A stretch of 64,000 nt of DNA, taken from UHGV virus genome UHGV-0134778, one strand, 5' to 3'. A model generated the notes under the pieces. That model worked only from the letters and a program-made list of their open reading frames with translations, was not told the DNA's origin and made no database searches. Positions 3,344 to 55,061 of this stretch are shown piece by piece. This DNA is from a virus. The first letter of the stretch is position 1; each line of letters begins with the position of its first letter. Made by a program: the position numbers and the translations under genes.

Positions 3344-3814
3344 TTACTGTCCAATTTTAAAGGTTGCAGATTCAAGCAGCACATCGTAATGCCGCATAGC
3401 CTCGTTGAAGCCCTTCTCTTGTGCCCACTGCTCACTAACAGTAGGGTTACTAAACTGACCAGCCTCAATAACAAACTGGATAGCTTTGGCCCCTGTGTCC
3501 CCCATCTGCCTAAGAACAGCCTCTGCACTTGATCCTCTAGCCATAGCTCTCAACAATTTTTCTGTCAAGGTCTGTAGTTGCGTGCTGTGAAATGCAAAGG
3601 CCGTCTCCATGAAATTGCGAACAGGCAGCCCGTTCCAACCGAAGTTGTGAATAGCTGCCAATGTTGCCATATTTAAGCCTGACGGGTGAGGTTCATCATA
3701 AAAGCCGTAGGTTATTGTTTTGCTTTCAAGTTTCACAAGGTCTTTATAAAAGCGATCTAAACGCTTTAGGTTGAACCTTGTTTGACATTTAACCTTTAGC
3801 ATTATATTCCTCAC
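3344..3814 (-). CDS. hypothetical virion protein (head completion or neck)
   Basis: 156-aa ORF in late array. Confidence 0.45.
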   Translation of the reverse strand: MRNIMLKVKCQTRFNLKRLDRFYKDLVKLESKTITYGFYDEPHPSGLNMATLAAIHNFGWNGLPVRNFMETAFAFHSTQLQTLTEKLLRAMARGSSAEAVLRQMGDTGAKAIQFVIEAGQFSNPTVSEQWAQEKGFNEAMRHYDVLLESATFKIGQ

Positions 3815-8400: not shown

Positions 8401-9957
8401 TTAATTTTCCATGTTAGATATGGAATTATCTCTGGTCGATGACATCTTAGAAGTGCCGTTGCCAGTGGATCCTGCAGCCATACCATCACCAGCCCTGCTG
8501 ATGTCCTGGCCCAAGAGCTTCATCAGCTCTTCCTGATCCATGTCTTCGTCAAATCTTTCATCAAACCCGCCTACTTCAAGAATCTTATTAATTACTGCAG
8601 GAGTTTTTGGCAAGTAACCTACAGCACCGATCCTCTGGACAAACTTGGAGAAGCTCTCCATGTCCACTTCTTCAATCAGACCAGGTTTCAGTTTAGGCAT
8701 ATCATCATCTTCAAGGATGATACCATTCAATGCCAGAAGCTGTGGAATAAGATCTTTATTGAAGGCCTCAGTGATAATATCTATATCACGCTGAACAAAA
8801 TGACCATGAATGGACTGTTTTGACTCAGACAGAGAGAAGGATCCGACGTTATCGTTACCGAGGTTAATAAATCCAGCACCGAAACGGTCAAGAATCGCCT
8901 TCTTACGGGCATCAATCAAATCTTTAGTAGAATACTGCTTACCCATACCATCAACCCCCTTCAGGGTCATGGAGTAAAGCTCTTTACCAGACTTATCTCT
9001 ATCAGACGGAAGTATAAAGAAACTTTGCTCCCCACTATGGGCGTTTGCTGCGTCCAACATAAGATCTGCAACCATTCTCCCTTCCATCGAATTCGGGTCA
9101 ATGCTGGCCTTGTTCAAAATATTGGAAGGAATTTTCAGCTCAAGCACACCACCAAGGTCTTTGGAGCAGCCAACAACCTCAAGGTTTTCAATCAAAACTT
9201 TCTCACGGAAAGATCTGTAGCAACCTATCATCGGTGACACACCTGCAGGATTAGATTCTGTTCCTGACAGAGTCATGAGCATAAGCTTTTTAGCAGGAAT
9301 GAAAATTTCAGGCTCATTAAAGCCTTTTGAAGGCATTGCAGCGAGAGGTCCAGCCCAGCGTGCATTCTGAGTGTTTAGAAATGCATTAGGTGACTGATAA
9401 ATACCTGTCAGTGTTCTGCTATTCTTGTCAAAGACAAACGGCTCTGATCTGGACAAACTGGCCTGTGGTCGGAATGCAATTTTATCAATAAGAAGCATCC
9501 CGGCATATTTACCTTCTTTCTCTCTGCGGTATACTTTCTCAAACAGTGAAAAACCATACTCGTTAAAGGTAGCTGCGCTTCTTGCAATATCTCGAAGAGT
9601 TTGTTGGTTTGCCAAATTACGCAAAGAATACTCTATAAGCTCGGCGGCTTTCTTAGAGTCTTCACTTTTAACATTATAAAGGATCTTAAAATCATTGAAT
9701 GCTTTCGTGATGAAAACATATTTTGTATCTAAGGCAGTAGCAACTGTGGAATCACATTTCATAGTCTCCACTGTGGCAATCAGCTGAGGCCAACGCAATT
9801 CCTCAACCATCATAGATTGTGATTCTGCCATAATTTGGGAAAGTGCGCCAGAACCGATCTCACTCATACGAACATTATGAGTTGGTGCGCCTGCGTTCCC
9901 AGATTTATTCACAGTTTTGGCTGTGGCGTTGTGTTTCCTGCGGTTCTTTTTGGACAC
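8401..9957 (-). CDS. portal protein
   Basis: 518-aa ORF immediately downstream of the large terminase and upstream of protease/scaffold/capsid; size and synteny. Confidence 0.65.
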   Translation of the reverse strand: MSKKNRRKHNATAKTVNKSGNAGAPTHNVRMSEIGSGALSQIMAESQSMMVEELRWPQLIATVETMKCDSTVATALDTKYVFITKAFNDFKILYNVKSEDSKKAAELIEYSLRNLANQQTLRDIARSAATFNEYGFSLFEKVYRREKEGKYAGMLLIDKIAFRPQASLSRSEPFVFDKNSRTLTGIYQSPNAFLNTQNARWAGPLAAMPSKGFNEPEIFIPAKKLMLMTLSGTESNPAGVSPMIGCYRSFREKVLIENLEVVGCSKDLGGVLELKIPSNILNKASIDPNSMEGRMVADLMLDAANAHSGEQSFFILPSDRDKSGKELYSMTLKGVDGMGKQYSTKDLIDARKKAILDRFGAGFINLGNDNVGSFSLSESKQSIHGHFVQRDIDIITEAFNKDLIPQLLALNGIILEDDDMPKLKPGLIEEVDMESFSKFVQRIGAVGYLPKTPAVINKILEVGGFDERFDEDMDQEELMKLLGQDISRAGDGMAAGSTGNGTSKMSSTRDNSISNMEN

Positions 9958-12587: not shown

Positions 12588-12874
12588 TAACCTCTCTCCT
12601 TTGGAAACAGTGTTCTTATATAGTCTTGCAAAATGATCAATTTAGCTCTATCATTACTACAAGACAGGTTATTATCCCTCATAATGCCAGAATTCACCGC
12701 ATCTGGCGCACCTTTCTTCAAAGGGATAGCTTTAGCAGGTGGTTTCATAGCACCCTCGGGAGGTTTAACAATCAACCTTCCTACATCCGGAGGGTCAATC
12801 TTGTATTCTCTCTCAACGCTGGTTGCACACCCACACAATAACAAGCACAAAACAACCAGTGCAGTAACTCTCAT
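12587..12874 (-). CDS. outer-membrane spanin (Rz1-like lipoprotein)
   Basis: N-terminus MRVTALVVLCLLLCGCATS is a lipoprotein signal with lipobox Cys; Pro-rich; 4-nt overlap with the upstream i-spanin gene. Confidence 0.6.
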   Translation of the reverse strand: MRVTALVVLCLLLCGCATSVEREYKIDPPDVGRLIVKPPEGAMKPPAKAIPLKKGAPDAVNSGIMRDNNLSCSNDRAKLIILQDYIRTLFPKERG

Positions 12875-13269
12875 CGAACCTCCTGATTGATACTCTCATT
12901 ATAAATATCTATTAGCTGATCAGGAAGTGTTGACTTCTTACCTTCAGGAGATTGGAGGTAGATAATCTGCTTTTCTTTACCTGCCTTCTCAGCCATATTT
13001 AATTTATCCTGTAGATCAGAAAGAGATTTTTCAAGGTTTTTAACCTCCTCTGCGTGGCCCATTTTAATTTTGTCGGCCTGCTTTTGTTGTTGGTCAAGGA
13101 TCCGTTCCCACTTTAACTCTGTTGCTGACACACCTTCTTGATAAGCATCATTGAGCTTAGAGTTAAACCAATACACGGCCCCAAGATAAGCCATGCCTAT
13201 AGCCGCTGCAAAAACTAAACCTTTTATGATCCCTCTGTGTTTACTCATCAATGTTAAAACTGAAATCAT
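12871..13269 (-). CDS. inner-membrane spanin (Rz-like)
   Basis: N-terminal transmembrane segment followed by a coiled-coil-like charged region; paired with the downstream lipoprotein ORF. Confidence 0.55.
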   Translation of the reverse strand: MISVLTLMSKHRGIIKGLVFAAAIGMAYLGAVYWFNSKLNDAYQEGVSATELKWERILDQQQKQADKIKMGHAEEVKNLEKSLSDLQDKLNMAEKAGKEKQIIYLQSPEGKKSTLPDQLIDIYNESINQEVR

Positions 13270-13691: not shown

Positions 13692-13768
13692 TGGTCTCCA
13701 CGGAGTGATTCGAACACTCGACCTCCTGATCCCAAATCAGGCGCTCTACCAAGCTGAGCTACGCGGAG
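13692..13768 (-). tRNA. tRNA-Pro (anticodon TGG)
   Basis: Hand-folded cloverleaf: 7-bp acceptor stem, D arm GCTC/GAGC, anticodon loop TTTGGGA, T loop TTCGAAT, encoded CCA. Confidence 0.85.
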
Positions 13769-13779
13769 TATTTATTATT

Positions 13780-13854
13780 TGGTGGCCCTGGGTGGAATTG
13801 AACCACCGTCTGGCGATTATGAGTCGCTTGCTTGAACCTTCCAGCTACAGGGCC
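13780..13854 (-). tRNA. tRNA-Met (anticodon CAT; elongator type, could be lysidine-modified Ile2)
   Basis: Acceptor GGCCCTG/CAGGGCC, anticodon loop CTCATAA, T loop TTCAATT, encoded CCA; G1-C72 pair argues against initiator. Confidence 0.8.
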
Positions 13855-13855
13855 A

Positions 13856-13931
13856 TGGTGCTGATGGCAGGACTTGAACCTGCAACCTATTGATTACAAA
13901 TCAATTGCACTGCCAATTGTGCTACATCAGC
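13856..13931 (-). tRNA. tRNA-Thr (anticodon TGT)
   Basis: Perfect 7-bp acceptor stem GCTGATG/CATCAGC, anticodon stem-loop ATTGA-TTTGTAA-TCAAT, T loop TTCAAGT, encoded CCA. Confidence 0.85.
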
Positions 13932-13935
13932 AAAA

Positions 13936-14034
13936 GGTGCTAGGTGATGGAATCGAACCACCTATGTATTCAACGACTACCTCGTCTATTTTCAGGATTA
14001 AAAATCCTCGCCCTTGCCAAAGGGCTTACCTAGC
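13936..14034 (-). tRNA. atypical tRNA-like element (99 nt): possible non-canonical tRNA or tRNA pseudogene
   Basis: Perfect 7-bp acceptor stem (GCTAGGT/ACCTAGC), canonical D arm and T arm (GGTGG-TTCGATT-CCATC), but A8-A9 instead of U8, an AGGATT-TTT-AATCCT hairpin in place of a standard anticodon arm, and a ~31-nt insert containing a second hairpin; no CCA encoded. Confidence 0.35.
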
Positions 14035-14132
14035 GCAATATGTTGACCATGTGGCTAGTCGGCGATGACGACTGTAACATTTGATAATCCGGTTCTGCTT
14101 CCGGCTTTCGCTTAATTACAAGGTCAACAATG

Positions 14133-14223
14133 TGGCGGAGAGTAATGGAATCGAACCATCATCGAGTCATCCTCAACGGGACGGTTTTCAAGACCGCTTG
14201 AGCACCATTGCTCCCTACCCTCC
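14133..14223 (-). tRNA. tRNA-Ser (anticodon TGA), class II with long variable arm
   Basis: Acceptor GGAGGGT/ACTCTCC with one G-U pair, anticodon stem-loop GCGGT-CTTGAAA-ACCGT, ~20-nt variable arm, T loop TTCGATT, encoded CCA. Confidence 0.8.
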
Positions 14224-14337
14224 TTTATAAATTACACTGATAATGACACTGATTTTCGAGCAGTTAGTGACTAGTATAAACGACGATAAATATCAATGTC
14301 ATTATCTGTATGATTTATGCATTTAAAAATATAAATT

Positions 14338-14424
14338 TGGTGGGGAGTGGTGGAGTCGAACCACCCGAGTCGCAATGACAATAGATTTACAGTCTACACC
14401 GCTACCTCTACGGGATAACTCCCC
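14338..14424 (-). tRNA. tRNA-Tyr (anticodon GTA), class II
   Basis: Acceptor GGGGAGT/ACTCCCC, anticodon stem-loop GTAGA-CTGTAAA-TCTAT, variable arm, T arm GGTGG-TTCGACT-CCACC, encoded CCA. Confidence 0.8.
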
Positions 14425-14428
14425 AATT

Positions 14429-14503
14429 TGGCACCCCGTACTGGACTCGAACCAGTGTCAACGGCTTAGAAGGCCGCTGCTTTATCCACTAAGCTAACAG
14501 GGC
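14429..14503 (-). tRNA. tRNA-Arg (anticodon TCT)
   Basis: Acceptor GCCCTGT/ACGGGGT with two G-U pairs, D arm GCTT/AAGC, anticodon stem-loop GCGGC-CTTCTAA-GCCGT, T arm ACTGG-TTCGAGT-CCAGT, encoded CCA. Confidence 0.8.
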
Positions 14504-44963: not shown

Positions 44964-45203
44964 ATGTATAAGTCATTTTCAATCTACTCAAGACAGACAA
45001 AACACTACACAGAGATTCTGATCACTCAGAAAAAATCTGTGGAAGGTGAGTGGGAATATCATCATAAAATGTTGCGTCCAGACTGGGTTTTTGACAGGCT
45101 TATTGCTATGATCCCTCTTGGAGAAGTATACCCTCTGACAGGTCATAGGGATGCTTGGGATTTAATTGACTATATAGATTCATTTAAGGAGCCTAGATTA
45201 TGA
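44964..45203 (+). CDS. hypothetical protein
   Basis: Trimmed to ATG (MYKSF) with AGAGGGGG RBS. Confidence 0.4.
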   Translation: MYKSFSIYSRQTKHYTEILITQKKSVEGEWEYHHKMLRPDWVFDRLIAMIPLGEVYPLTGHRDAWDLIDYIDSFKEPRL

Positions 45204-45598
45204 AGATTGAGATTACTGAAGAAGGTAAGAAAGTCTCTGGTAACTATGCAACAGTTATCCGTGATGTAATGTTCGAAGTCACTAAGATTGGCACATCCAA
45301 GGTTGGTCAAACGGTGAGTGTGCAAGGTAATATCACCTCAGGAGAGAAGATATTCATCGTAATAAAAGGCCAGGACCCTGTAGAAGGGACAGTTGGACGT
45401 GGCGGATACCTGTGTATCTCTGAAGAGCCTCGCATGCTAGTTGCTGATAACTCTACAGGTAAAAAGCGGGTATGTAACACGGACGAGGTGATGATTATCT
45501 ATCCAGTCAACCCGGATGATCCGGCAACATGGATTGTGGGAAATGAAATCTTCTCTTTAGAAGAGTTATCCTTCCCAGCTCCGCGATCTGTTCAGTAA
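45200..45598 (+). CDS. hypothetical protein (MKIEIT-type N-terminus; paralog group)
   Basis: 132 aa; N-terminus resembles the 50469, 52620 and 56064 ORFs. Confidence 0.5.
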   Translation: MKIEITEEGKKVSGNYATVIRDVMFEVTKIGTSKVGQTVSVQGNITSGEKIFIVIKGQDPVEGTVGRGGYLCISEEPRMLVADNSTGKKRVCNTDEVMIIYPVNPDDPATWIVGNEIFSLEELSFPAPRSVQ

Positions 45599-45637
45599 TA
45601 ATTTATCTTACCAGGGACGGTAAAAGTAGGAGGTAGC

Positions 45638-45871
45638 ATGAAAGTTAAATTTCTTACAGATTTAGGGTACCCTTCCTTGGTTGACTGTGTTGGTAAAATT
45701 GTGGAAGCAAAACGGCTATCTGCAAACGATAATGTTGTCATGGTTAAGGGAAAAGATTTACTAGCTGCAGGTGCAGAGTCTGGCAGGATCTCTCCTGACT
45801 ATACGTATTACCTGTCTTTAAGTAATCTACCAGAACGAGGCGGCAAAGGCCTTGAAGTTGTGGAGGAGTGA
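45638..45871 (+). CDS. small protein of the MKVK...EVVEE paralog family
   Basis: 77 aa; shared N-terminus MKVKFL and acidic C-terminus EVVEE with the 49196, 50925 and 52362 ORFs. Confidence 0.55.
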   Translation: MKVKFLTDLGYPSLVDCVGKIVEAKRLSANDNVVMVKGKDLLAAGAESGRISPDYTYYLSLSNLPERGGKGLEVVEE

Positions 45872-46413
45872 CAGGTATGCTTCTGATTAACTGGGAAGAC
45901 CTCTATGGGGACAAAGACCCTGTTGCGTTTGTTGATCGTAGGTGGAGGTACACTGAAGAACAACTGGCTGCAAAAAATTTAACTGCAAAACGCAGAAAGA
46001 TCATCCAGTGCAAGTACAAATACGCACAGTTTGCTGCAAAAGTGTCTCCACAAATCGAGAGTTTTGTACTTAAATTGTATGACGAGTACCTCAAATTCAA
46101 ATTGGATTTTGTACAGGTATACCGTGCACAGGTACGTCCAGATACCAACATCTGTAGATGGAAGGTTGTTTGTGATGGTAAAGATTTGCCGCTCAGTTTG
46201 ACAATTGAGTGGCGTTGGGGGTATCATGAGTGCGGTTTGTATGATATTTGGGATGTCATTGTAGATCCTGCTAAGTACCTGAACACAGAGGAGCTGGAAT
46301 ATATCAATAAGGTTATTCTAGATATGTTTTTCAGCTACACCCATGAAAACTCTGAGAAAGAACGGGATAATTTTCTTGACACCCTCGGCAACCACCTGCA
46401 GTGTACAATTTAA
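45868..46413 (+). CDS. hypothetical protein
   Basis: 181-aa ORF. Confidence 0.5.
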   Translation: MTGMLLINWEDLYGDKDPVAFVDRRWRYTEEQLAAKNLTAKRRKIIQCKYKYAQFAAKVSPQIESFVLKLYDEYLKFKLDFVQVYRAQVRPDTNICRWKVVCDGKDLPLSLTIEWRWGYHECGLYDIWDVIVDPAKYLNTEELEYINKVILDMFFSYTHENSEKERDNFLDTLGNHLQCTI

Positions 46414-46431
46414 CCTACAAAGGAGGAGCCA

Positions 46432-46635
46432 ATGAGTATAGATGCTGTGCTGATAGGTTACCTGGTAGTAGCTGTTATAACAGCAGTAATCTTGGCAGGT
46501 ATATGCATCGTGTCTACCCGAAGGGTGAAGTTTGATGATTTTATCACCATCATCACTGCTGCGCCCTTTTGGCCTGTTGTTATCTTCATCGTAATAATGT
46601 GCCTAGTTGATTACCACAAGAATATCCGTAAGTAG
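46432..46635 (+). CDS. small membrane protein with two TM segments (holin-like topology)
   Basis: 67 aa; two hydrophobic stretches and a charged C-terminus (HKNIRK); AGGAGG RBS. Confidence 0.45.
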   Translation: MSIDAVLIGYLVVAVITAVILAGICIVSTRRVKFDDFITIITAAPFWPVVIFIVIMCLVDYHKNIRK

Positions 46636-46650
46636 AAAAAGGAGAGTAGG

Positions 46651-46804
46651 GATGGATACCGCACCTAAAACTGTTTATACTGTTCTTAAAGAGATTGCAT
46701 TCTACGCAGATCTTAGCCGGGCACCTTTATGGGAAAAGAATATGTATTTAAAATGGTGCGTGAAATTAGGGGGGCCTTCTAATGTTTCAAGCCATGTTTA
46801 TTGA
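46651..46804 (+). CDS. hypothetical small protein
   Basis: Trimmed to ATG (MDTAPK) with AGGAGAG RBS. Confidence 0.35.
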
Positions 46805-46887
46805 AATGCTCTCTGGGGTATTACTGCTGGTAGCCATTTTAGGTGGCGCGGCGCTGATGTATAATTATCTTGAAAAAGGGGACAGTA

Positions 46888-47073
46888 ATGACAAAAAATA
46901 AATCCTTAGAACAGGCTGAAAACCTTCTCCACGAGCTGGTAAAGGAGTGGAAAGTTGAATACTCAGATTTTAATGCAAGAGAGGGGGAAGATTATTGGCC
47001 TACGGAGCGCTCAGAGGGAGAGTGGTATCAAGATTTCATAGAATGGCTATATCAGACGTGCGATGAGGGGTGA
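46888..47073 (+). CDS. hypothetical small acidic protein
   Basis: Trimmed to ATG (MTKNKSLEQ). Confidence 0.4.
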   Translation: MTKNKSLEQAENLLHELVKEWKVEYSDFNAREGEDYWPTERSEGEWYQDFIEWLYQTCDEG

Positions 47074-47075
47074 CG

Positions 47076-47531
47076 ATGTTTGTTAAATATGTAAAAACGT
47101 GCCTCAACAACCTTGGTAGAGAGCATTGGTACACACTGCTTGAAAAAGGAGAAATTTTAACAAAATCTGGAAAGATAACTTTGATACCTTTGGACGATAA
47201 AGACCCGTCACTACTTGTCATAGATGATTACGTTACAGGTGTGTCGTACGAGGTATCTGTGGAGAGGTTAATACGCAGATCTGGAGGTCCTTATGACCGA
47301 AGAGAGTATGTTTTCGATTCCGTTACAGAGAAGGAAGATCCGTCTCTAATGTTTAGGATGGTAATCAGGGATATGAAATCATCTATAAATAGGATCGTAA
47401 AGGACATTAAGGAGCCTTTTAGGGTAAAAGTTAAGAAGTTTTTTGATTCTAAGATCAACATACTTGCAGTTGTGCTAGGCGTAATTCAACTTCTGTTAAT
47501 TTTGCACTATTTTGAACTGTTGTTTAAGTAA
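47076..47531 (+). CDS. hypothetical protein with C-terminal TM segment
   Basis: ATG with GAGGGG RBS; C-terminal hydrophobic tail LAVVLGVIQLLLIL. Confidence 0.45.
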   Translation: MFVKYVKTCLNNLGREHWYTLLEKGEILTKSGKITLIPLDDKDPSLLVIDDYVTGVSYEVSVERLIRRSGGPYDRREYVFDSVTEKEDPSLMFRMVIRDMKSSINRIVKDIKEPFRVKVKKFFDSKINILAVVLGVIQLLLILHYFELLFK

Positions 47532-47591
47532 TGTGCATTATGGCACAAAGGATGTGCCATAACTAAATAAACTAAGAAAGAGGTAGAGAGA

Positions 47592-47939
47592 ATGTCAAAG
47601 ATTAAATCGATATTAATGTGGGTGGCTGTTGTAGCTTTTGTAGGATACTGGACTTGGGAAACTGAATTAAAAGATATTGGGTATACCAGTCTTGAGAGTA
47701 AGGCGTGCATTGGCATAACCGATGCATTCAGGCAGAATGCTATGGATCACGAATGTGTCGATGCAGATATAGATGAGAAACTGTCTAAGGACAAAGATTT
47801 TTACCATGGTCATGCCTTGCTTGATAGTGGTGATACTGTAGAATTCTGGTCGTGGTTCCGTGAAGATGGGACAATAAAGACAGCAGTAAAGATTTCCAAC
47901 AAAGAGTTGATGCTGTTGCAGCAGAAGGAGGTGCAATGA
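47592..47939 (+). CDS. hypothetical protein with N-terminal signal/TM segment
   Basis: AAGAGG RBS; N-terminal hydrophobic segment ILMWVAVVAFVGYW. Confidence 0.5.
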   Translation: MSKIKSILMWVAVVAFVGYWTWETELKDIGYTSLESKACIGITDAFRQNAMDHECVDADIDEKLSKDKDFYHGHALLDSGDTVEFWSWFREDGTIKTAVKISNKELMLLQQKEVQ

Positions 47940-48205
47940 TCTGGATATCCTACGCTGATGGCACCATGCTGTATACTGCAGGTACTAGATATGAAGTTAA
48001 GGAGGACGATAAAAAATTTATCGTAAAAACATTTGACAAGGACGACAACCTTTTGCTAGAATTGACTTACAAGGTTGGGGATGTATCTAGCATCCAATTG
48101 GATTGCGGTCATAAAGATAACCCGCTCAAGAAACCTGGGGTAGGTAAAGCTTCAGAAGAACGCCTGTCTCGTATTGCAGAAAGCGTTTCTGCACAAAAAA
48201 TCTAA
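47936..48205 (+). CDS. hypothetical protein
   Basis: 89-aa ORF, start/stop overlap. Confidence 0.45.
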   Translation: MIWISYADGTMLYTAGTRYEVKEDDKKFIVKTFDKDDNLLLELTYKVGDVSSIQLDCGHKDNPLKKPGVGKASEERLSRIAESVSAQKI

Positions 48206-48220
48206 AAAGGGGACTAGAAA

Positions 48221-48415
48221 ATGAAAAACTTACATTTTAACACTTATTACTACAACACTTTGAATGATTTGTATTATATTGTTCGAAGTAAAAATCCTGA
48301 AACAGTCCTATTCTGCCGCGAACCTTTCAAAGGAGAGGAAGTGGAGTCTGAGATGAATGTTAGCCAGATTACCTCTTTGTTGCTCTCAGGTGCAATGGAA
48401 GAAGCAATATTCTAA
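48221..48415 (+). CDS. hypothetical protein
   Basis: 64-aa ORF. Confidence 0.4.
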   Translation: MKNLHFNTYYYNTLNDLYYIVRSKNPETVLFCREPFKGEEVESEMNVSQITSLLLSGAMEEAIF

Positions 48416-48433
48416 ACCAGGCGGGAGGGTTTT

Positions 48434-48622
48434 ATGAAGCACTATTGTCTGTCTGGTAGGATGGGGGTGGATTGTGATTGGGTTTTCTTAAAACTTGTCA
48501 GCGTTCGAGAGTCCATCCCAGAGGAAGAGCAAGAAAGCGAGCTGATGTCATGGATCAACCATTACGGTAACACTTTTCGGCATGTTAAGGTAGAAGAGTT
48601 GCCAAGCGAGGCTGAATTATGA
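48434..48622 (+). CDS. hypothetical protein
   Basis: 62-aa ORF. Confidence 0.4.
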   Translation: MKHYCLSGRMGVDCDWVFLKLVSVRESIPEEEQESELMSWINHYGNTFRHVKVEELPSEAEL

Positions 48623-48915
48623 AACTTTTTGAGTGGTTTAAAAAGTTTAAATATAAAGCTGTAGCCATCGTGCCGTGGTCCATTCAGTGGGTTGATGAAG
48701 GTGGTCTACCGATACCTGGTGACAAAGATACTGGGTACTGGATTATGATGGAGAACGGGTTTGGAAAGCGAAAGTATACGTGCACAAACTCTACTCGATC
48801 TGCACTTAATAGAGTGCCTGGTTACAAACTTATGGTTGTGTGGAAAATGTCAGGCGTGCCTCCAGCCAATGCTCAATTTCTTACTGACAATCCGACCACG
48901 GTAGAGGGAGATTGA
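48619..48915 (+). CDS. hypothetical protein
   Basis: 98-aa ORF. Confidence 0.45.
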   Translation: MKLFEWFKKFKYKAVAIVPWSIQWVDEGGLPIPGDKDTGYWIMMENGFGKRKYTCTNSTRSALNRVPGYKLMVVWKMSGVPPANAQFLTDNPTTVEGD

Positions 48916-49199
48916 TAATGAAAAAGATTAACAGTAGTGAAGTAGAGTTTAAACTTGTCGGAAAAGGCACTTACTGGGAAGTTCGTCAAAAGGTATATTT
49001 GTTCGGTCTTATTCCCTACTGGTCTAAATTCTACTGGGGAGCTAACGAGTTGGGAAGATACGCCACCAAATCAATGGCACTTATTGGTATAGCAGAGTAC
49101 ATTGCAGCCCGAGACAGGGTTGGAACCACTTATTACTACACTGCTGACGATATTCGTAACAGTGTTTACGTCCCACAACCACCTGATGGAGACCGTTGA
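48912..49199 (+). CDS. hypothetical protein
   Basis: 95-aa ORF. Confidence 0.45.
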   Translation: MIMKKINSSEVEFKLVGKGTYWEVRQKVYLFGLIPYWSKFYWGANELGRYATKSMALIGIAEYIAARDRVGTTYYYTADDIRNSVYVPQPPDGDR

Positions 49200-49423
49200 T
49201 GAAAGTTAAAGTTTTAGATTCAAGCTTCTATATTGGTCAGGAGCCTTTAGTAGGAAAAGTGTTTACTGCTGTCCCTAACGAAGATTACCCTGACCTTTTA
49301 AAAATAAAAGGAGCAGATCTTATTGCCGCTGGTGCATCTCAGGAATGCTTTGACAGTCAGTGGACCTATAACTTTGCCCTAGGTGAGGATGTAGAGGTAG
49401 TGGAGGACGATCATGAAGGTTAA
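49196..49423 (+). CDS. small protein of the MKVK...EVVEE paralog family
   Basis: 75 aa; MMKVKVLDSSFYIGQ ... VEVVED. Confidence 0.5.
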   Translation: MMKVKVLDSSFYIGQEPLVGKVFTAVPNEDYPDLLKIKGADLIAAGASQECFDSQWTYNFALGEDVEVVEDDHEG

Positions 49424-49667
49424 AATTCTTGATTCTAACGTCTACTTGGGACAATCCTTCCTGAATGGAAAGGTCGTTCCTGCGGTATACTTTGAAGGGT
49501 TGCCGTGGGATGATCCTGTGCGGCAACATCACAGTTATGTAGGCCACAACGTGGTGTTTATCTTGGGATCAGACCTGATCACCGCTGGTGCACCTGAATA
49601 TTATTTCGGGGAAGAGTCCTACTATGCCTTTGGGGTAGGGTCAGATGCAGATATTGTAGAGCTGTGA
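49413..49667 (+). CDS. small protein of the MKVK paralog family
   Basis: 84 aa; MKVKILDSNVYLGQ, closest to the preceding ORF. Confidence 0.5.
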   Translation: MKVKILDSNVYLGQSFLNGKVVPAVYFEGLPWDDPVRQHHSYVGHNVVFILGSDLITAGAPEYYFGEESYYAFGVGSDADIVEL

Positions 49668-49679
49668 TGGGTAACCGTT

Positions 49680-50078
49680 GTGAAAAATAAACTGTTTAAA
49701 GTTACAATGAAAATTCGCGGAGCTTGGAGCGTAAAGCAAGGGCGCATCCCAGAGTTTGAGAAAGACTTCTACGTAGTCTCCACCTCTGAAGAGGCTGCAT
49801 GCTGGCAGGCTGGATATGCCTATGCAAGAACCTGGTACGAAGGATACCAGACTGGAGGCTATGACGGAGAAATTGTCAGCAAGGGTGTGGAAGAAATTAA
49901 TGTGTTGACAAGTGAAAAAGTTTTTGTTATAGTGCATCCTGATTCTAGAGTGAAGCATTACTGGAATGCCAGAACAAAAACCTGGACACCGTTTGCAGAT
50001 TCTGCTACACCGCTTTTAAACCAGAAAGCTCTTGACTCTGCCCCAAGCTATGGGGTTGTTGAAGAAAAGATAAGCTGA
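49680..50078 (+). CDS. hypothetical protein (paralog of 51887-52282)
   Basis: 132 aa; shares VIVHPDSRVKHYWNARTKTWTP-type segment with the 51887 ORF. Confidence 0.5.
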   Translation: MKNKLFKVTMKIRGAWSVKQGRIPEFEKDFYVVSTSEEAACWQAGYAYARTWYEGYQTGGYDGEIVSKGVEEINVLTSEKVFVIVHPDSRVKHYWNARTKTWTPFADSATPLLNQKALDSAPSYGVVEEKIS

Positions 50079-50095
50079 AATAGTGGGGTACTTAC

Positions 50096-50386
50096 ATGAT
50101 GGATTTAGTTTTGGACACTGATAACACCGAATCGTTTAAAAAAGATGGTGTAATAAGCATGGACCAACCCTGCCATGCCAAGATTGACTCAAAATGGACC
50201 TACAAGTTTGACGGTGAGATCTTCGCAAATGATGAGAAGGTCGTGGATGCTGTAGCCATTTTAAACGCTTTAGGGTATGACCCTGTGAACTCATTGATCA
50301 AGGATCCTGTTGAGTTTGCAGAGTATGTTCGTAAAATGGCAGATCTTGCAGTAGATATTTTAAAAACTATCGACGACAAGCTGTAA
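50096..50386 (+). CDS. hypothetical protein
   Basis: 96-aa ORF. Confidence 0.45.
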   Translation: MMDLVLDTDNTESFKKDGVISMDQPCHAKIDSKWTYKFDGEIFANDEKVVDAVAILNALGYDPVNSLIKDPVEFAEYVRKMADLAVDILKTIDDKL

Positions 50387-50392
50387 AAACTG

Positions 50393-50421
50393 TTGACACA
50401 ACACTTGATCTTTAGTATCAT
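50393..50421 (+). promoter_or_regulatory. sigma70-like promoter followed by a leader hairpin
   Basis: TTGACA-N17-TATCAT; hairpin AGAGGG-tttggtt-CCCTCT plus T-rich tail at ~50431-50455 between promoter and RBS. Confidence 0.55.
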
Positions 50422-50468
50422 TATTTTCAAAGAGGGTTTGGTTCCCTCTTCTTTAAAAGGAGCACGTT

Positions 50469-50786
50469 ATGCAGATTGAAATCACTGGCAACGTAGAGAT
50501 CACTGAAGGTATGGTGTCTTTCATTTCCCACAAAATGTCCAAACTGGAGCGTTTGCACCCATCTGCCAACTATGCACGTGTGAGTGTAAAAGTTGAAAAT
50601 GATCACCAGGAAGTTATGGCTTTTATTTTTGACAATTCTGGGAAAGAAGTTATCGCCAAAGCTAAAGGTAGCGATGCTTACGAGGCAACTGACCGTATGG
50701 TGGATGTTGCAGCACGCCAGTTGGCTAAATGCGGTGGAAAGAAAGGTAAGGGAAAAGGTAAAGTAAAGATTGACTTTTTAGATTAA
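50469..50786 (+). CDS. hypothetical protein with Gly/Lys-rich C-terminus
   Basis: 105 aa; MQIEIT N-terminus; GKKGKGKGKVK tail. Confidence 0.5.
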   Translation: MQIEITGNVEITEGMVSFISHKMSKLERLHPSANYARVSVKVENDHQEVMAFIFDNSGKEVIAKAKGSDAYEATDRMVDVAARQLAKCGGKKGKGKGKVKIDFLD

Positions 50787-50924
50787 GGTGCTACAATGGG
50801 CATGATTAAGAAATTAGTCCCAAATGTAGAGATTGCATGCTTTGAAATTATGTTTGCAATCGCAGTTGTAGTTAATGTGTTAGGTTACGGCTATTAATTA
50901 TCAAATAATTGAGGAGACCTCTAA

Positions 50925-51194
50925 ATGAAAATTAAATTATTCAAAACTGAGCTGGCAGACAAAAACTGCGGACTGGTTGAAGGCATGATCGTTGAAGCAC
51001 AACCAGTTGACTACATGAAGGTGGTTCGTGATGCCCTGGGTGAAGGTTTTGATCTGATGGAGCCAGCTCTGCGAGAAGATGTCATCGAGATGGCTAAAAA
51101 GCACACACCGGAAGGTTTGGTAGTGTTTGTTGCACCAGGTAACGGGGAAGAGTTGATTGTAACTCCGGATGTGTATGAGGTTGTAGAAGAGTAA
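50925..51194 (+). CDS. small protein of the MKVK...EVVEE paralog family
   Basis: 89 aa; MKIKLFK ... YEVVEE. Confidence 0.5.
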   Translation: MKIKLFKTELADKNCGLVEGMIVEAQPVDYMKVVRDALGEGFDLMEPALREDVIEMAKKHTPEGLVVFVAPGNGEELIVTPDVYEVVEE

Positions 51195-51286
51195 TCCTGC
51201 TTGGGTTGGAATACTTTCCTCGACAAGAAAGGTTTATAATTATTTGTGGGAAAGGAATCCCCATCTCTTACCAGAGGTGATACTAT

Positions 51287-51550
51287 ATGATTGTTTATTT
51301 TAAAACTTCAGGTGGATACCCTGATTCTCAAAGCTTGATTGGAAAAACGTGCACAGCATACTCACCTCTTGATGAGGAGGTAAGTGGTATCCTACGAGAT
51401 ATGTATCGGATTGATCCACAAGAAGCTTTTGATCAAAACCTTGTATTTGTCAAGGGATCAGACATAAAGTCTTTGGGGGCATTCCCTGAAGCAGATGATG
51501 ATGCTGTTTATTCGTTTATGACACCTTTTGAAGCTATGGTTGTGGGGTAA
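51287..51550 (+). CDS. hypothetical small protein (distant member of the paralog family)
   Basis: 87-aa ORF. Confidence 0.45.
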   Translation: MIVYFKTSGGYPDSQSLIGKTCTAYSPLDEEVSGILRDMYRIDPQEAFDQNLVFVKGSDIKSLGAFPEADDDAVYSFMTPFEAMVVG

Positions 51551-51554
51551 GAAT

Positions 51555-51887
51555 ATGAAAGTACGCTTTATTGGTGAAACAATTCCTGTGCATCTCCGGT
51601 CTCCTGAAGACTCTGCAGATCTTGCATCTCAAAAGGCGAGAGGGTATGATAAGAAAGTGATCTCAAGCAATGTAGAGCTTGAGGCCACCAGTCTGCCTGA
51701 CCCAGCTGCATTCTTCAATCATTATGGCTACTATTTTAGCAATCTGATGAATATTGGTGAGCTTGTGTTTATTAGTGGTGGAGAGATAGTTAGCAAGCTT
51801 GGTGGAGATCCGGATATCTTTCATGAAACCTGTCCTTTTGCATTTGTGGTGGGTTCAGATGTGGAAGTTATTGAGGAGGTTCGGTAA
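51555..51887 (+). CDS. small protein of the paralog family
   Basis: Trimmed to ATG (MKVRFIGE); C-terminus VEVIEEVR. Confidence 0.5.
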   Translation: MKVRFIGETIPVHLRSPEDSADLASQKARGYDKKVISSNVELEATSLPDPAAFFNHYGYYFSNLMNIGELVFISGGEIVSKLGGDPDIFHETCPFAFVVGSDVEVIEEVR

Positions 51888-52282
51888 TGGTAAGTCTATA
51901 CCGTGTTGAGTATAGCTCGGATACTGTATACAACGTAAGAAGCAAAGATCGCAGTGATAGAGTGCAAGAAATGTATGTTCTTGCAGATAGTCCGTTATCT
52001 GCAGCGTTCAAGGCAGGAGCTCTTGCATCTCGTTGGAAATTTGAGGGTGGATCTTTCTATGAAGAAACCCTCGAAGATTCTGTTGTTATTTCTTCTGTAG
52101 AGGTTTCAACCGACTACGAAGGGAAAAAGTTCGTAATGCGGCACCCACACAGCAACATTGCGTACTACTGGGATGTTCTGAACAATGAGTGGACACCTGA
52201 TCTTCAGAAGGCCACTGTTCTAACCCCATTCCTGGCAGATAAGTTCCCACCAGAAGGTAATTTATCTGCACTGTTTCAGTAA
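51887..52282 (+). CDS. hypothetical protein (paralog of 49680-50078)
   Basis: 131 aa; FVMRHPHSNIAYYWDVLNNEWTP segment. Confidence 0.5.
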   Translation: MVSLYRVEYSSDTVYNVRSKDRSDRVQEMYVLADSPLSAAFKAGALASRWKFEGGSFYEETLEDSVVISSVEVSTDYEGKKFVMRHPHSNIAYYWDVLNNEWTPDLQKATVLTPFLADKFPPEGNLSALFQ

Positions 52283-52361
52283 TTTTATGCCACACAGGTG
52301 TTGACAACACCAACCCTGTGTGCAATAATACCTTCATCTTAACAAGATAGGAGACCGATTG

Positions 52362-52619
52362 ATGAAGATTAAATTGAAAAACCTTGAAACGGCAGAGATT
52401 CAGGAAGGTGTTGATTTCCGTTCTAAAGATGGAGACATCCTAGAGGCGAATGTCCCGACATATAAGTTGATTAAAGGTTTTGGCAACGTTCCGGAGGAGG
52501 ATATTACAGACATTCTTATGATGTTGATCCTTGACGGGACTGTGTTTGTAGGTGAAGGTGAGAACGCTATTGCAATCCCGAGCCATTTTTATGAAGTAGT
52601 TGACGAAGAGGTGCTGTAA
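52362..52619 (+). CDS. small protein of the MKVK...EVVEE paralog family
   Basis: MKIKLKN ... YEVVDEE; GGAG RBS. Confidence 0.5.
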   Translation: MKIKLKNLETAEIQEGVDFRSKDGDILEANVPTYKLIKGFGNVPEEDITDILMMLILDGTVFVGEGENAIAIPSHFYEVVDEEVL

Positions 52620-52970
52620 ATGAAAGTAGAGATCACAGGTTTTGATATGAATGCGGTTCCGGAAGATATTTTAGCTAAACTCCCGGAAGGTTTTGGTAAC
52701 GGTGTTGTGGTTGATGCTGTTCCTCCTACCAAAGACATCCTGCTGCAGTATGGTGTGGCAGAGGAAGATGTTGATAAAGTTCTTACAATGATGGCAATCG
52801 ACCGTGTTGTCGTTGTTAAAGGTCTTGAAGGTTTTGATAACGATCCTCTGATTATTCGTGGTGATGACTATCGTATCATCGACAACGAAGGTCAGGGGTT
52901 CTACGAACCTTCTGCTGAAGATGTTCTTAACTTACTACTGGAAGCAGGTACCGTAGAGGAGGCAGAATAA
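52620..52970 (+). CDS. hypothetical protein (paralog-family-like)
   Basis: 116 aa; MKVEITGF ... TVEEAE. Confidence 0.5.
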   Translation: MKVEITGFDMNAVPEDILAKLPEGFGNGVVVDAVPPTKDILLQYGVAEEDVDKVLTMMAIDRVVVVKGLEGFDNDPLIIRGDDYRIIDNEGQGFYEPSAEDVLNLLLEAGTVEEAE

Positions 52971-53299
52971 TGAAAATTGATCCGTTACTGAAGGCTCGTG
53001 CAGAAAAAGCATACACTATTAAGCTGACCTCTCTGGTTCCTACTTGTCATCCAGATGTAGGTTGGCCTGAAGGTCTGGTAGAGGGGACTGTAACAGCCGC
53101 ATATCTCCCTAACATCAAATACCTCATGGAGATCTTGGAGATGGATGAGGAAACGGCAGAACAGTTCCAGTTAGACATGAAGCAAAGTGGGACTCTGGTT
53201 ATTCACGGGTGGTATAATACTAAAGATGCAGAAGATCCCCTGGTAACTTCTAATCTGGCATATGAGATCTTAGGGCCTTTGAACTTGGGGGAAGACTAA
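52970..53299 (+). CDS. hypothetical protein
   Basis: 109-aa ORF with start/stop overlap. Confidence 0.45.
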   Translation: MKIDPLLKARAEKAYTIKLTSLVPTCHPDVGWPEGLVEGTVTAAYLPNIKYLMEILEMDEETAEQFQLDMKQSGTLVIHGWYNTKDAEDPLVTSNLAYEILGPLNLGED

Positions 53300-53586
53300 T
53301 GAAAGATTTGGTTAAGATCAAGATTAAAGACACCAATGGAGAACTCAGCCATTTTGGAATTAACGATGGTGACGAGCTGATCGCCCACCTGCCTACCAAG
53401 GAAGTTGTAAGCAAAGCGGTTGCCGGAGAAGAAGATGCAATGCAGGCTGCAGGTGTGGATGAAAACTATGTAGCAATGTGTATGTGCCGAGATCAGGTTG
53501 TTCTGTATAAAGCGTATCGACCAAATGGAGCACCTGAGTGGCTTGTTTTCCGACCCGAAGGATATGAAATTTTAGAGACGCTATGA
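53299..53586 (+). CDS. hypothetical protein
   Basis: 95-aa ORF. Confidence 0.45.
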   Translation: MKDLVKIKIKDTNGELSHFGINDGDELIAHLPTKEVVSKAVAGEEDAMQAAGVDENYVAMCMCRDQVVLYKAYRPNGAPEWLVFRPEGYEILETL

Positions 53587-53967: not shown

Positions 53968-54108
53968 ATGACTGATTTTACTGAAGCTTTAATGATGGCC
54001 TTATCTGTTTTAGCGCTATCGGTGTGTTTTGGGGCGTTATTCACATCTCTGGTTAAAGTTTTACATACCATATTCTCACCCAAGGAGCACAGTAATGACG
54101 AAGATTGA
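53968..54108 (+). CDS. small membrane protein (46 aa), not in the ORF track
   Basis: Strong RBS GAGGTGAGGA; hydrophobic core ALMMALSVLALSVCFGALFTSLV; stop overlaps the next start. Confidence 0.4.
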   Translation: MTDFTEALMMALSVLALSVCFGALFTSLVKVLHTIFSPKEHSNDED

Positions 54109-54346
54109 CTTAAATGCTGGCGACCATGTTGTTGTCAAATGCATCGGGGATTATCTTGGATTCACAATCGGCAATACTTACGAGGCAGTGGTGGCGAAGG
54201 TTTATCATGATAAAGTCCTTAGCCTTGTATTTGACTGTGATGATGACGGAGATGACCGCTACGTCTGTGAGGTGCTGGCACGTGACGATAGTGAAGACCA
54301 GAAATTCCTGGTTATCGAACTGAACGGTATTTTTGTAGAACGTTAA
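54095..54346 (+). CDS. hypothetical protein
   Basis: ORF-track ORF trimmed to ATG (MTKIDLNAGD) with AAGGAG RBS. Confidence 0.45.
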   Translation: MTKIDLNAGDHVVVKCIGDYLGFTIGNTYEAVVAKVYHDKVLSLVFDCDDDGDDRYVCEVLARDDSEDQKFLVIELNGIFVER

Positions 54347-54680: not shown

Positions 54681-54685
54681 CAACG

Positions 54686-54734: not shown

Positions 54735-55061
54735 ATGCTAATGCCGATTACTGTAAAAGAACTAAATGAACGTGATGCAGGAGGCCTGTGGCCTGCACGG
54801 AAAATACGCTGCGTTTATATGAAAGAGAATCTTGAACACCTTGATCAACAGATTGCGGTTGGCGATATTTTCGAAGTTCTCTATTCTAATCGTCGCAACT
54901 GGGAAACCATTCAACCTTCCGGTTTTGTTCTTGCCAGACTTGATACCGGAGAAGTGATTATCCCTGGGCTGGATATTGTCTTCGAAATTATCCAGGAGTG
55001 GGATCCTGATAAGATTAAATATGAAGAGTTATTCGGTGAAGGTATTATCAGGCCTGTATGA
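54735..55061 (+). CDS. hypothetical protein
   Basis: 108-aa ORF with GAAGGAG RBS. Confidence 0.5.
   Translation: MLMPITVKELNERDAGGLWPARKIRCVYMKENLEHLDQQIAVGDIFEVLYSNRRNWETIQPSGFVLARLDTGEVIIPGLDIVFEIIQEWDPDKIKYEELFGEGIIRPV

Follow-up and report, generated by a model that had tools for sequence, protein, structure and literature searches.

Three families of diverged small paralogues in the accessory gene region of an rV5-like phage

It is well known that large lytic phages have expanded sets of small accessory genes in their variable regions. In the hyperplastic regions of T4-like phages, small non-core rightward genes vary from genus to genus, arise by duplication and are exchanged horizontally. 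The rV5-like phages (genus Vequintavirus), which serve as components of biocontrol cocktails, are among the E. coli phages isolated most often, and about a quarter of an rV5-like genome consists of unannotated small genes. Here we analyze a 64,000-nucleotide stretch of the virus genome UHGV-0134778 (the window, to which all unqualified coordinates refer) and, within it, an array of small genes between 45.6 and 53.6 kb. Our reading, to which we give a probability of about 60%, is that the array is part of a variable accessory block of an rV5-like phage and holds three paralogous families with twelve genes in all. We are confident of the structural and evolutionary part of this explanation; the functional part, in which the encoded proteins act early in infection as a panel of binders directed at host or defence components, is a tentative proposal that we think rather more apt to be wrong than right. 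The array resembles the T4-like regions in the features just listed, but its copies are old and individually conserved, with ratios of nonsynonymous to synonymous substitution (dN/dS) of 0.0-0.36, unlike the fast-turnover ORFans of T4-like variable regions.

The paper on the rV5 genome is silent on duplications, and our search of the literature on rV5 paralogues, transcriptomics and counter-defence screens found nothing relevant. What has been discussed or described are the rV5 sigma-70 promoters P144 and P150 and a terminator (PMC3606486), and a ribosome hibernation promoting factor (HPF) of rV5 (PMC6375957). The 9-kb stretch that carries our array is 96% identical in nucleotide sequence to Escherichia phage vB_EcoM-ECP26, a Vequintavirus, and its identity to most of some 120 rV5-like phages exceeds 90%, which identifies the window as rV5-like. 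The open reading frames (ORFs) named in a preliminary description of the region are all present on the + strand and agree with the gene calls in annotated relatives; for the gene listed there at 49196 we use the ORF start at 49199. The counterparts of the array genes in the rV5 reference are gp122, gp135-137, gp139 and gp141-149.

We compared the proteins by all-against-all BLASTP among 36 genes of the region, by iterated hidden Markov model (HMM) searches against all 470 window ORFs of at least 40 amino acids, and by profile-profile comparison (hhalign) of orthologue alignments from seven relatives. By these sequence comparisons the paralogy is real, and it falls into three families, A with five genes, B with two and C with five, rather than one. 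The preliminary description had placed seven small ORFs with similar first and last residues in a single family; paralogy holds inside A and inside C, but the similarity between A and C is not significant. Its broader view of the locus as a cluster of diverged small paralogues was borne out, with more members than it had listed (51287, 52970 and 53299 are added). The all-against-all alignment that it had named as a check finds similarity extending beyond the termini, yet only inside the separate groups. The members, in genome order within each family, are:

45638-45871, + strand: A1 (family A), 77 amino acids, rV5 gp122; no loop insert
49199-49423, + strand: A2 (family A), 74 amino acids, rV5 gp135; minimal form of the fold
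49413-49667, + strand: A3 (family A), 84 amino acids, rV5 gp136; start overlaps A2 by 11 nucleotides
51287-51550, + strand: A4 (family A), 87 amino acids, rV5 gp142; insert of about 25 residues, probably helical
51555-51887, + strand: A5 (family A), 110 amino acids, rV5 gp143; largest insert, about 45 residues
49680-50078, + strand: B1 (family B), 132 amino acids, rV5 gp137; GTG start
51887-52282, + strand: B2 (family B), 131 amino acids, rV5 gp144; start overlaps the A5 stop
50925-51194, + strand: C1 (family C), 89 amino acids, rV5 gp141; weakest family C member by sequence
52362-52619, + strand: C2 (family C), 85 amino acids, rV5 gp145
52620-52970, + strand: C3 (family C), 116 amino acids, rV5 gp146; C-terminus extended by an acidic tail of about 30 residues
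52970-53299, + strand: C4 (family C), 109 amino acids, rV5 gp147; hhalign probability of 88% to C3
53299-53586, + strand: C5 (family C), 95 amino acids; hhalign probability of 34% to C3 and 20% to C2

Family A is held together by full-length alignments with pairwise identities of 23-47% and BLASTP E-values down to 2e-14. An HMM built from A1, A2 and A3 recovered A4 at E = 5e-6 and A5 at E = 6e-5, with the next ORF at E = 0.75. The hhalign probabilities were 81-99% for nine of the ten pairs, the exception being A1-A5 at 8%. The closest pair was A2 and A3 (BLASTP E = 1.8e-14, hhalign 99.4%); A1 scored 97% against A2, A4 scored 81-93% against A1-A3, and A5 scored 94% against A3 and 85% against A2. 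Individual members carry their own additions, such as an extra LPERGGKG segment ahead of the last strand in A1 and, in A3, 14 residues inserted into the strand 2-3 loop. Downstream of the array are two more ORFs for small acidic proteins (54029-54346 and 54735-55061); the second was found by the iterated family A profile at E = 0.017, below significance, and both may be very diverged beta-barrel genes.

Similarly, the two ORFs of about 130 residues in which the preliminary description had noticed a common HP...YW...WTP core are true paralogues, each preceded by two family A genes. These family B proteins match each other with a phmmer E-value of 2e-10 (2.3e-10), an hhalign probability of 97% and 27% identity over 128 residues, with HPxSxxxxYW....WTP as the conserved core. 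Family C has three solid members and two weak ones. The strong links are C2-C3 at 95% and C3-C4 at 88%, and the weak links are those of C5 and C1, with hhalign probabilities of 6-34%. C1 nevertheless aligns with C2 over its full length at 42% identity (77 columns), for an hhalign probability of 19%, and is consistently the top match of family C profiles; C5 is also consistently among their top matches. All five genes are consistently one another's best matches, and scores within C exceed the background of C against other proteins (p = 1e-6). In the rV5 reference the C5 orthologue (8526-8796 of the extracted locus, L020) is annotated as two overlapping short coding sequences, gp148 and gp149, an arrangement that points to a frameshift or to faulty sequencing in the rV5 record.

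The PHROGs database independently groups A1-A3 together and B1-B2 together. A1, A2 and A3 match phrog_5009 with E-values of 2.5e-36, 1.7e-38 and 3.7e-32, A4 does so only at 1.6e-4, and A5 lacks a match to it and has its own cluster, phrog_13661. Both B proteins match phrog_7379 (E = 2.1e-73 for B1 and 4.2e-66 for B2), and each family C member matches a PHROG of its own (phrog_11868, 12359, 12155, 12457 and 12794). The families thus already exist as unnamed clusters, phrog_5009 joining three A copies and phrog_7379 both B copies. The clusters concerned (phrog_5009 with phrog_13367, 8603, 7345 and others, phrog_7379, and those of family C) are all annotated as function unknown. PHROGs differs from our grouping in splitting A and C into many clusters, and it records neither the expanded arrays nor a common fold.

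Could the likeness have arisen by chance, from common start contexts and from glutamate codons imposed by Shine-Dalgarno sequences, with no true paralogy behind it? Proteins that begin with MK and end with EE are favoured in tightly packed phage operons, and one such coincidence occurs in this very region: the three ORFs that begin with MKIEIT (45200, 50469 and 56064), proposed earlier as a further group, proved to be unrelated, with mutual phmmer E-values above 1 and three different PHROGs, and by sequence their likeness is a coincidence of the first six residues. However, the similarity within A, B and C runs the full length of the proteins, with E-values down to 2e-14, 2e-10 and 3e-4 in searches of 36 to 470 proteins, and it is matched by hhalign probabilities of up to 99% and by the independent clustering of A1-A3 and B1-B2. 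For A, B and the core of C, these alignments, profile comparisons and PHROGs assignments refute chance resemblance, to which we now give almost no weight. The terminal motifs themselves are also unevenly distributed: an N-terminal MK[VI][KRE][VILF] and a C-terminal [EDA][VI][VIL][EDG] occur jointly in 5 of the 260 window ORFs of at least 60 amino acids, all five within 45.6-52.6 kb, where independence of the two motifs predicts 0.34 (Poisson p = 3e-5).

The acidic C-terminus is nonetheless a weak marker of homology, because its GAGGAG codons form the Shine-Dalgarno sequence of the next gene. Where the gap between two genes is 5 nucleotides or less, the final Glu/Gly codons of the first contain the Shine-Dalgarno sequence of the second; VVEE is encoded as GTGGAGGAG, VIEE as ATTGAGGAGG, TVEEAE as GTAGAGGAGGC and VDEE as GACGAAGAGG. 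Neighbouring genes would thereby be translationally coupled. These dual-coded ends, and the two candidate promoters found by a consensus scan, are:

45860-45877, 49395-49413, 51869-51887, 52602-52620 and 52952-52970: dual-coded junctions, Shine-Dalgarno sequence inside the C-terminal codons
50393-50421, + strand: promoter-like site of sigma-70 type, TTGACA-17-TATCAT, upstream of the HPF gene; corresponds to rV5 P144
52301-52329, + strand: promoter-like site of sigma-70 type, TTGACA-17-AATAAT with an extended -10 TG; corresponds to rV5 P150

Both promoter calls are sequence matches, and both sites fall in the only sizeable intergenic gaps of the array. A strong terminator at 54685 coincides with one annotated in rV5. 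In general, the array genes lie on the + strand of a long rightward block together with nucleotide-metabolism, PhoH, ClpP-like and methyltransferase genes, the small genes being downstream of the last three, and between about 18 and 56 kb of the window the GC skew is positive. The array would be transcribed rightwards from promoters of sigma-70 type. Elsewhere in the window, seven tRNA genes (Pro, Met, Thr, Ser, Tyr, Arg) are clustered on the minus strand at 13692-14503; the call at 13936-14034 spans 99 nucleotides with a four-base anticodon and may be intron-containing or degenerate.

One member of the MKIEIT trio has an assigned function:

50469-50786, + strand: HPF/RaiA homologue, rV5 gp139; inside the array, outside all three paralogue families

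The protein matches the Pfam family Ribosomal_S30AE (PF02482) with 48.3 bits against a cut-off of 23.7 bits, and no match to this family was found in 45200, 56064 or 50925. The product of 50469-50786 is the HPF of rV5-like phages; it has no relationship to any of the families A, B and C, nor to either of the remaining MKIEIT ORFs. GenBank records label orthologues of the neighbouring C1 gene as 'sigma 54 modulation factor' (8926-9195 of L001 and 9019-9288 of L002, two related loci). We reject this label: C1 has no S30AE match at E <= 1, and for that reason the name looks carried over from the adjacent HPF gene.

We then asked what the A and C proteins may look like. AlphaFold2 models of A2 and C2, made from alignments of 34 and 37 sequences, had pLDDT confidence scores of 91.7 and 89.4. 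Both are predicted to be SH3-like small beta-barrels, five-stranded and superposable on SH3, KOW or PsaE domains. In both models the MK(V/I)K N-terminus forms strand 1 and the (Y)E(V/I)(V/I) C-terminus forms strand 5, and what tells the paralogues apart is the strand 2-3 loop, whose inserts range from 0 to about 45 residues. The helical hairpin of family C also lies between strands 2 and 3, in the same loop as the inserts of A3, A4 and A5. A structure search of BFVD returned small uncharacterised phage proteins with template modelling scores (TM-scores) of up to 0.86; these matches had no functional annotation, save for one weak match labelled 'Exonuclease'. The A and C proteins are acidic, with isoelectric points of 4.1-5.4 (4.1-4.7 in nine of the ten) and net charges of -1 to -18, most of them -7 or below. 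They belong by predicted fold with the class of small barrels that includes SH3, KOW, Tudor, PsaE and the integrase C-terminal domain. They differ from the known members in being standalone, acidic and phage-encoded; a further difference is a conserved strand-helix element, GxDLIxAGA, which follows strand 3 in family A and is missing from canonical SH3 domains. Pfam, including its SH3, KOW and Tudor models, gave no match, either at E <= 1 for the ten proteins searched from the window or at E <= 0.1 for 33 members of family A, and sequence-profile searches of the PDB with A and C gave none at E <= 0.1.

The similarity of the two models raises the question of whether all ten A and C genes descend from a single ancestor, family C being a form of A that has acquired a helical hairpin in the strand 2-3 loop. 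The fold class, the order of the strands and the position of the variable insert are the same in the two predictions, the MK(V/I)K first strand is common to both, and the genes are adjacent in the genome. Furthermore, hhalign aligns the first 27-28 columns of the two families, up to a G-x-hydrophobic-x-A strand, and A-by-C scores are slightly above background (p = 0.02-0.06). However, the hhalign probability is 8% with family-wide alignments and 23% after A is broadened with distant members, the family A profile gives C members E-values of 0.8-6 in the window, and a full HMMER search with it returned no C member. Nor is the C-terminal EE motif a clean signal, since its codons double as a Shine-Dalgarno sequence. 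Because the SH3-like fold is very common, common ancestry of A and C is possible and not established, and on balance we lean somewhat against it.

How did the array arise? We propose that the three families came from old tandem and segmental duplications and that unequal homologous recombination between adjacent copies still takes place. The order A-A-B occurs twice (49199-49413-49680 and 51287-51555-51887), in keeping with a segmental duplication, and the preliminary description had suggested a diverged segmental duplication of this part of the locus. The two segments do have the same order of paralogues, but they show neither position-wise pairing nor nucleotide colinearity. A duplicated cassette predicts that A2 pairs with A4 and A3 with A5, whereas A2 and A3 are mutual nearest relatives at 47% identity, and the hhalign scores across the segments (31.7, 34.3, 39.5 and 43.7) have no one-to-one pattern. 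No long nucleotide repeats were found between the copies, only matches of 15-30 nucleotides at start codons and at the GSDLIxAGA motif; the copies may simply be too diverged for nucleotide colinearity. Duplication of an A-B or A-A-B unit is therefore plausible and not established, the position-wise pairing being absent.

On the sequence evidence the duplications are old and none is recent. A divergent metagenomic relative (L010), with 35-60% amino-acid identity for most genes, has almost the whole array in the same order. Its orthologues are far closer to ours than the paralogues are to each other, and the arrangement thus predates the split from L010. This relative lacks B1 and has an unrelated 104-amino-acid gene at that place (10482-10796 of L010); it also has an extra gene of the PF27050 family (Phage_P22_Y8K6) ahead of its C2 orthologue, at 12867-13163. 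Against three closer relatives, dN/dS is 0.00-0.23 for all twelve genes, with one exception of 0.36 for the gene at 49196 against a chimeric gene of L007, and by this measure all twelve are coding and under purifying selection.

The chimeric gene is itself informative. In the metagenomic Vequintavirus contigs L007-L009, a single 70-amino-acid gene (10001-10213 of L007) replaces both A2 and A3. Its 5' 141 nucleotides are 96% identical to A2 and its 3' 72 nucleotides 99% identical to A3, with the crossover inside the common GCCGCTGGTGCA motif. Judged by its sequence, it is the product of an unequal crossover, and recombination between copies is ongoing; its existence in these contigs also indicates that hybrid barrels are viable. 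The two-copy state (A2 with A3) dominates among GenBank phages, where it was found at 234 places in 118 records. A 98-residue protein from a 657-bp ENA contig (P0085) combines the C-terminal half of the C4 family with an unrelated N-terminal segment; this protein has a precomputed PF24132 match and may be another recombinant.

By tblastn and word-indexed searches, the three families are found essentially only in Vequintavirus, plus one member in a lambdoid prophage. No homologues were found within 16 kb on either side of the ClpP-like gene in PVP-SE1, KB57, Av-05 and CR9, which represent four other genera of Vequintavirinae. The syntenic regions of these genera hold other genes, which makes the array a genus-specific accessory block. 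A scan of viral contigs with the family B profile found only Vequintavirus fragments. The breadth of family A was seen only by an exhaustive HMMER scan with its profile, which yielded 44 clusters at 50% identity. The distant members are mostly 63-87 amino acids long, with the consensus MKVKLLNDGGY...GKVVEA...GxELIxAGA...Y.F...E.EVIEE; the family spans at least 10 PHROGs, all annotated as function unknown, and has no Pfam model. By sequence, family A is thus a widespread and uncharacterised one. Some polypeptides contain two to three copies of the domain (P0099 of 136 amino acids, P0102 of 264 and P0127 of 219), a few members are fused to C-terminal regions of unknown nature, and the unrelated viral contigs L026 (4893-6222), L027 (1184-1926) and L030 carry tandem arrays of two to four family A genes, three or four in L026 and L027. 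Since arrays and fusions occur in unrelated viruses, amplification of the domain is not a tendency peculiar to rV5-like phages.

The distant members occur sporadically and in varied genomic settings. The closest relatives of A1 outside Vequintavirus are in lambdoid prophages: P0031, a 75-amino-acid protein whose cluster has 309 member sequences, is encoded in an E. coli lambdoid prophage, among the small genes that separate antiterminator Q from the holin/lysozyme cassette (loci L012-L014, at 10001-10228 of L012 and L013, and L034, at 3501-3728). The interval from Q to the lysis genes is a classic moron position of lambdoid phages. Phage MagusPhagus also has a family A member between Q and the lysis genes. 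In a 42-kb phage a member adjoins Prim-Pol, with a second copy elsewhere, and in the T4-like phage Merlin one lies in the variable region between gene 32 and frd.

What might these proteins do? Our proposal is that the A and C proteins probably form a diversified panel of small modules that bind other proteins. Early in infection each would engage its own target among host or defence components, and specificity would be determined by the variable loop that joins strands 2 and 3. Direct nucleic-acid binding is unlikely because most of the proteins are strongly acidic, and a protein-binding panel appears to be the most economical reading of small, single-domain acidic proteins that are found in early or accessory contexts and differ mainly in one loop. 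Several observations weigh against it. The low dN/dS values indicate purifying selection, which is not what one usually expects of arms-race counter-defence genes, and the early timing is a prediction from promoter consensus matches and genome position. No annotated homologue links A, B or C to a function, and Pfam, PDB sequence searches and PHROGs annotations likewise give none; in PDB sequence-profile searches, A and C have no similarity to known anti-defence or solved proteins. In addition, the fold prediction covers families A and C, and family B stands outside it.

The position of the HPF gene suggests a different role, in which the barrels would be part of a translation or transcription module with the co-transcribed HPF and act as mimics of KOW or L24 domains on the ribosome or at the NusG-S10 interface. 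HPF lies inside the array at the head of the P144 unit, followed by C1, A4, A5 and B2, and KOW and L24 are among equally good SH3 structural matches to the models. However, canonical SH3 domains score just as well, there is no Pfam KOW match, and family A occurs in phages without HPF nearby. The rV5 HPF is expressed, yet it was not recovered from high-salt ribosome fractions (PMC6375957). We regard this role as improbable.

A virion or assembly role, for example as decoration proteins or chaperones, seems to us more improbable still. SH3-like barrels do occur in phage structural proteins, and the neighbouring gene at 47070 (rV5 gp128) carries a virion structural annotation. However, the array genes are in a transcription unit of replication and nucleotide-metabolism genes with promoters of sigma-70 type and not in the structural module, none is annotated as structural in any relative inspected, and family A lies in early or accessory regions of other phages. 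The annotation of gp128 (47070-47531) comes from a match to phrog_7821, 'virion structural protein'; the place is an unusual one for a structural gene, among early small genes.

We prefer the protein-binding panel, and a more speculative extension of it, which we think a long shot, would also account for the expansion itself. Family A may be an easily amplified phage domain whose terminal GAGGAG, as a ready-made Shine-Dalgarno sequence, couples tandem duplicates at once, and the rV5 arrays would be combinatorial sets of loop-diversified binders. If true, this would explain why family A arrays, and even multi-domain fusions, recur in unrelated phages, and the rV5 binders (A, and C if related) would be aimed at targets of host takeover or at defence, possibly including the translation apparatus alongside HPF.

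As a whole, the locus shows a large phage expanding its accessory genes in a fairly ordinary way, and because it is conceptually ordinary its value is mainly in annotation and the generation of hypotheses; the points of modest interest are how widely family A is spread, how repeatedly it has been amplified in tandem, the chimera found in nature and the double use of the C-terminal codons. For the rV5-like phages, twelve unannotated genes are reduced to three families, two of them with a confident fold prediction. Family A is tied to a wide family of small phage proteins, one without a name, which is found repeatedly in tandem arrays, and the three families together are a tractable target for functional screens.

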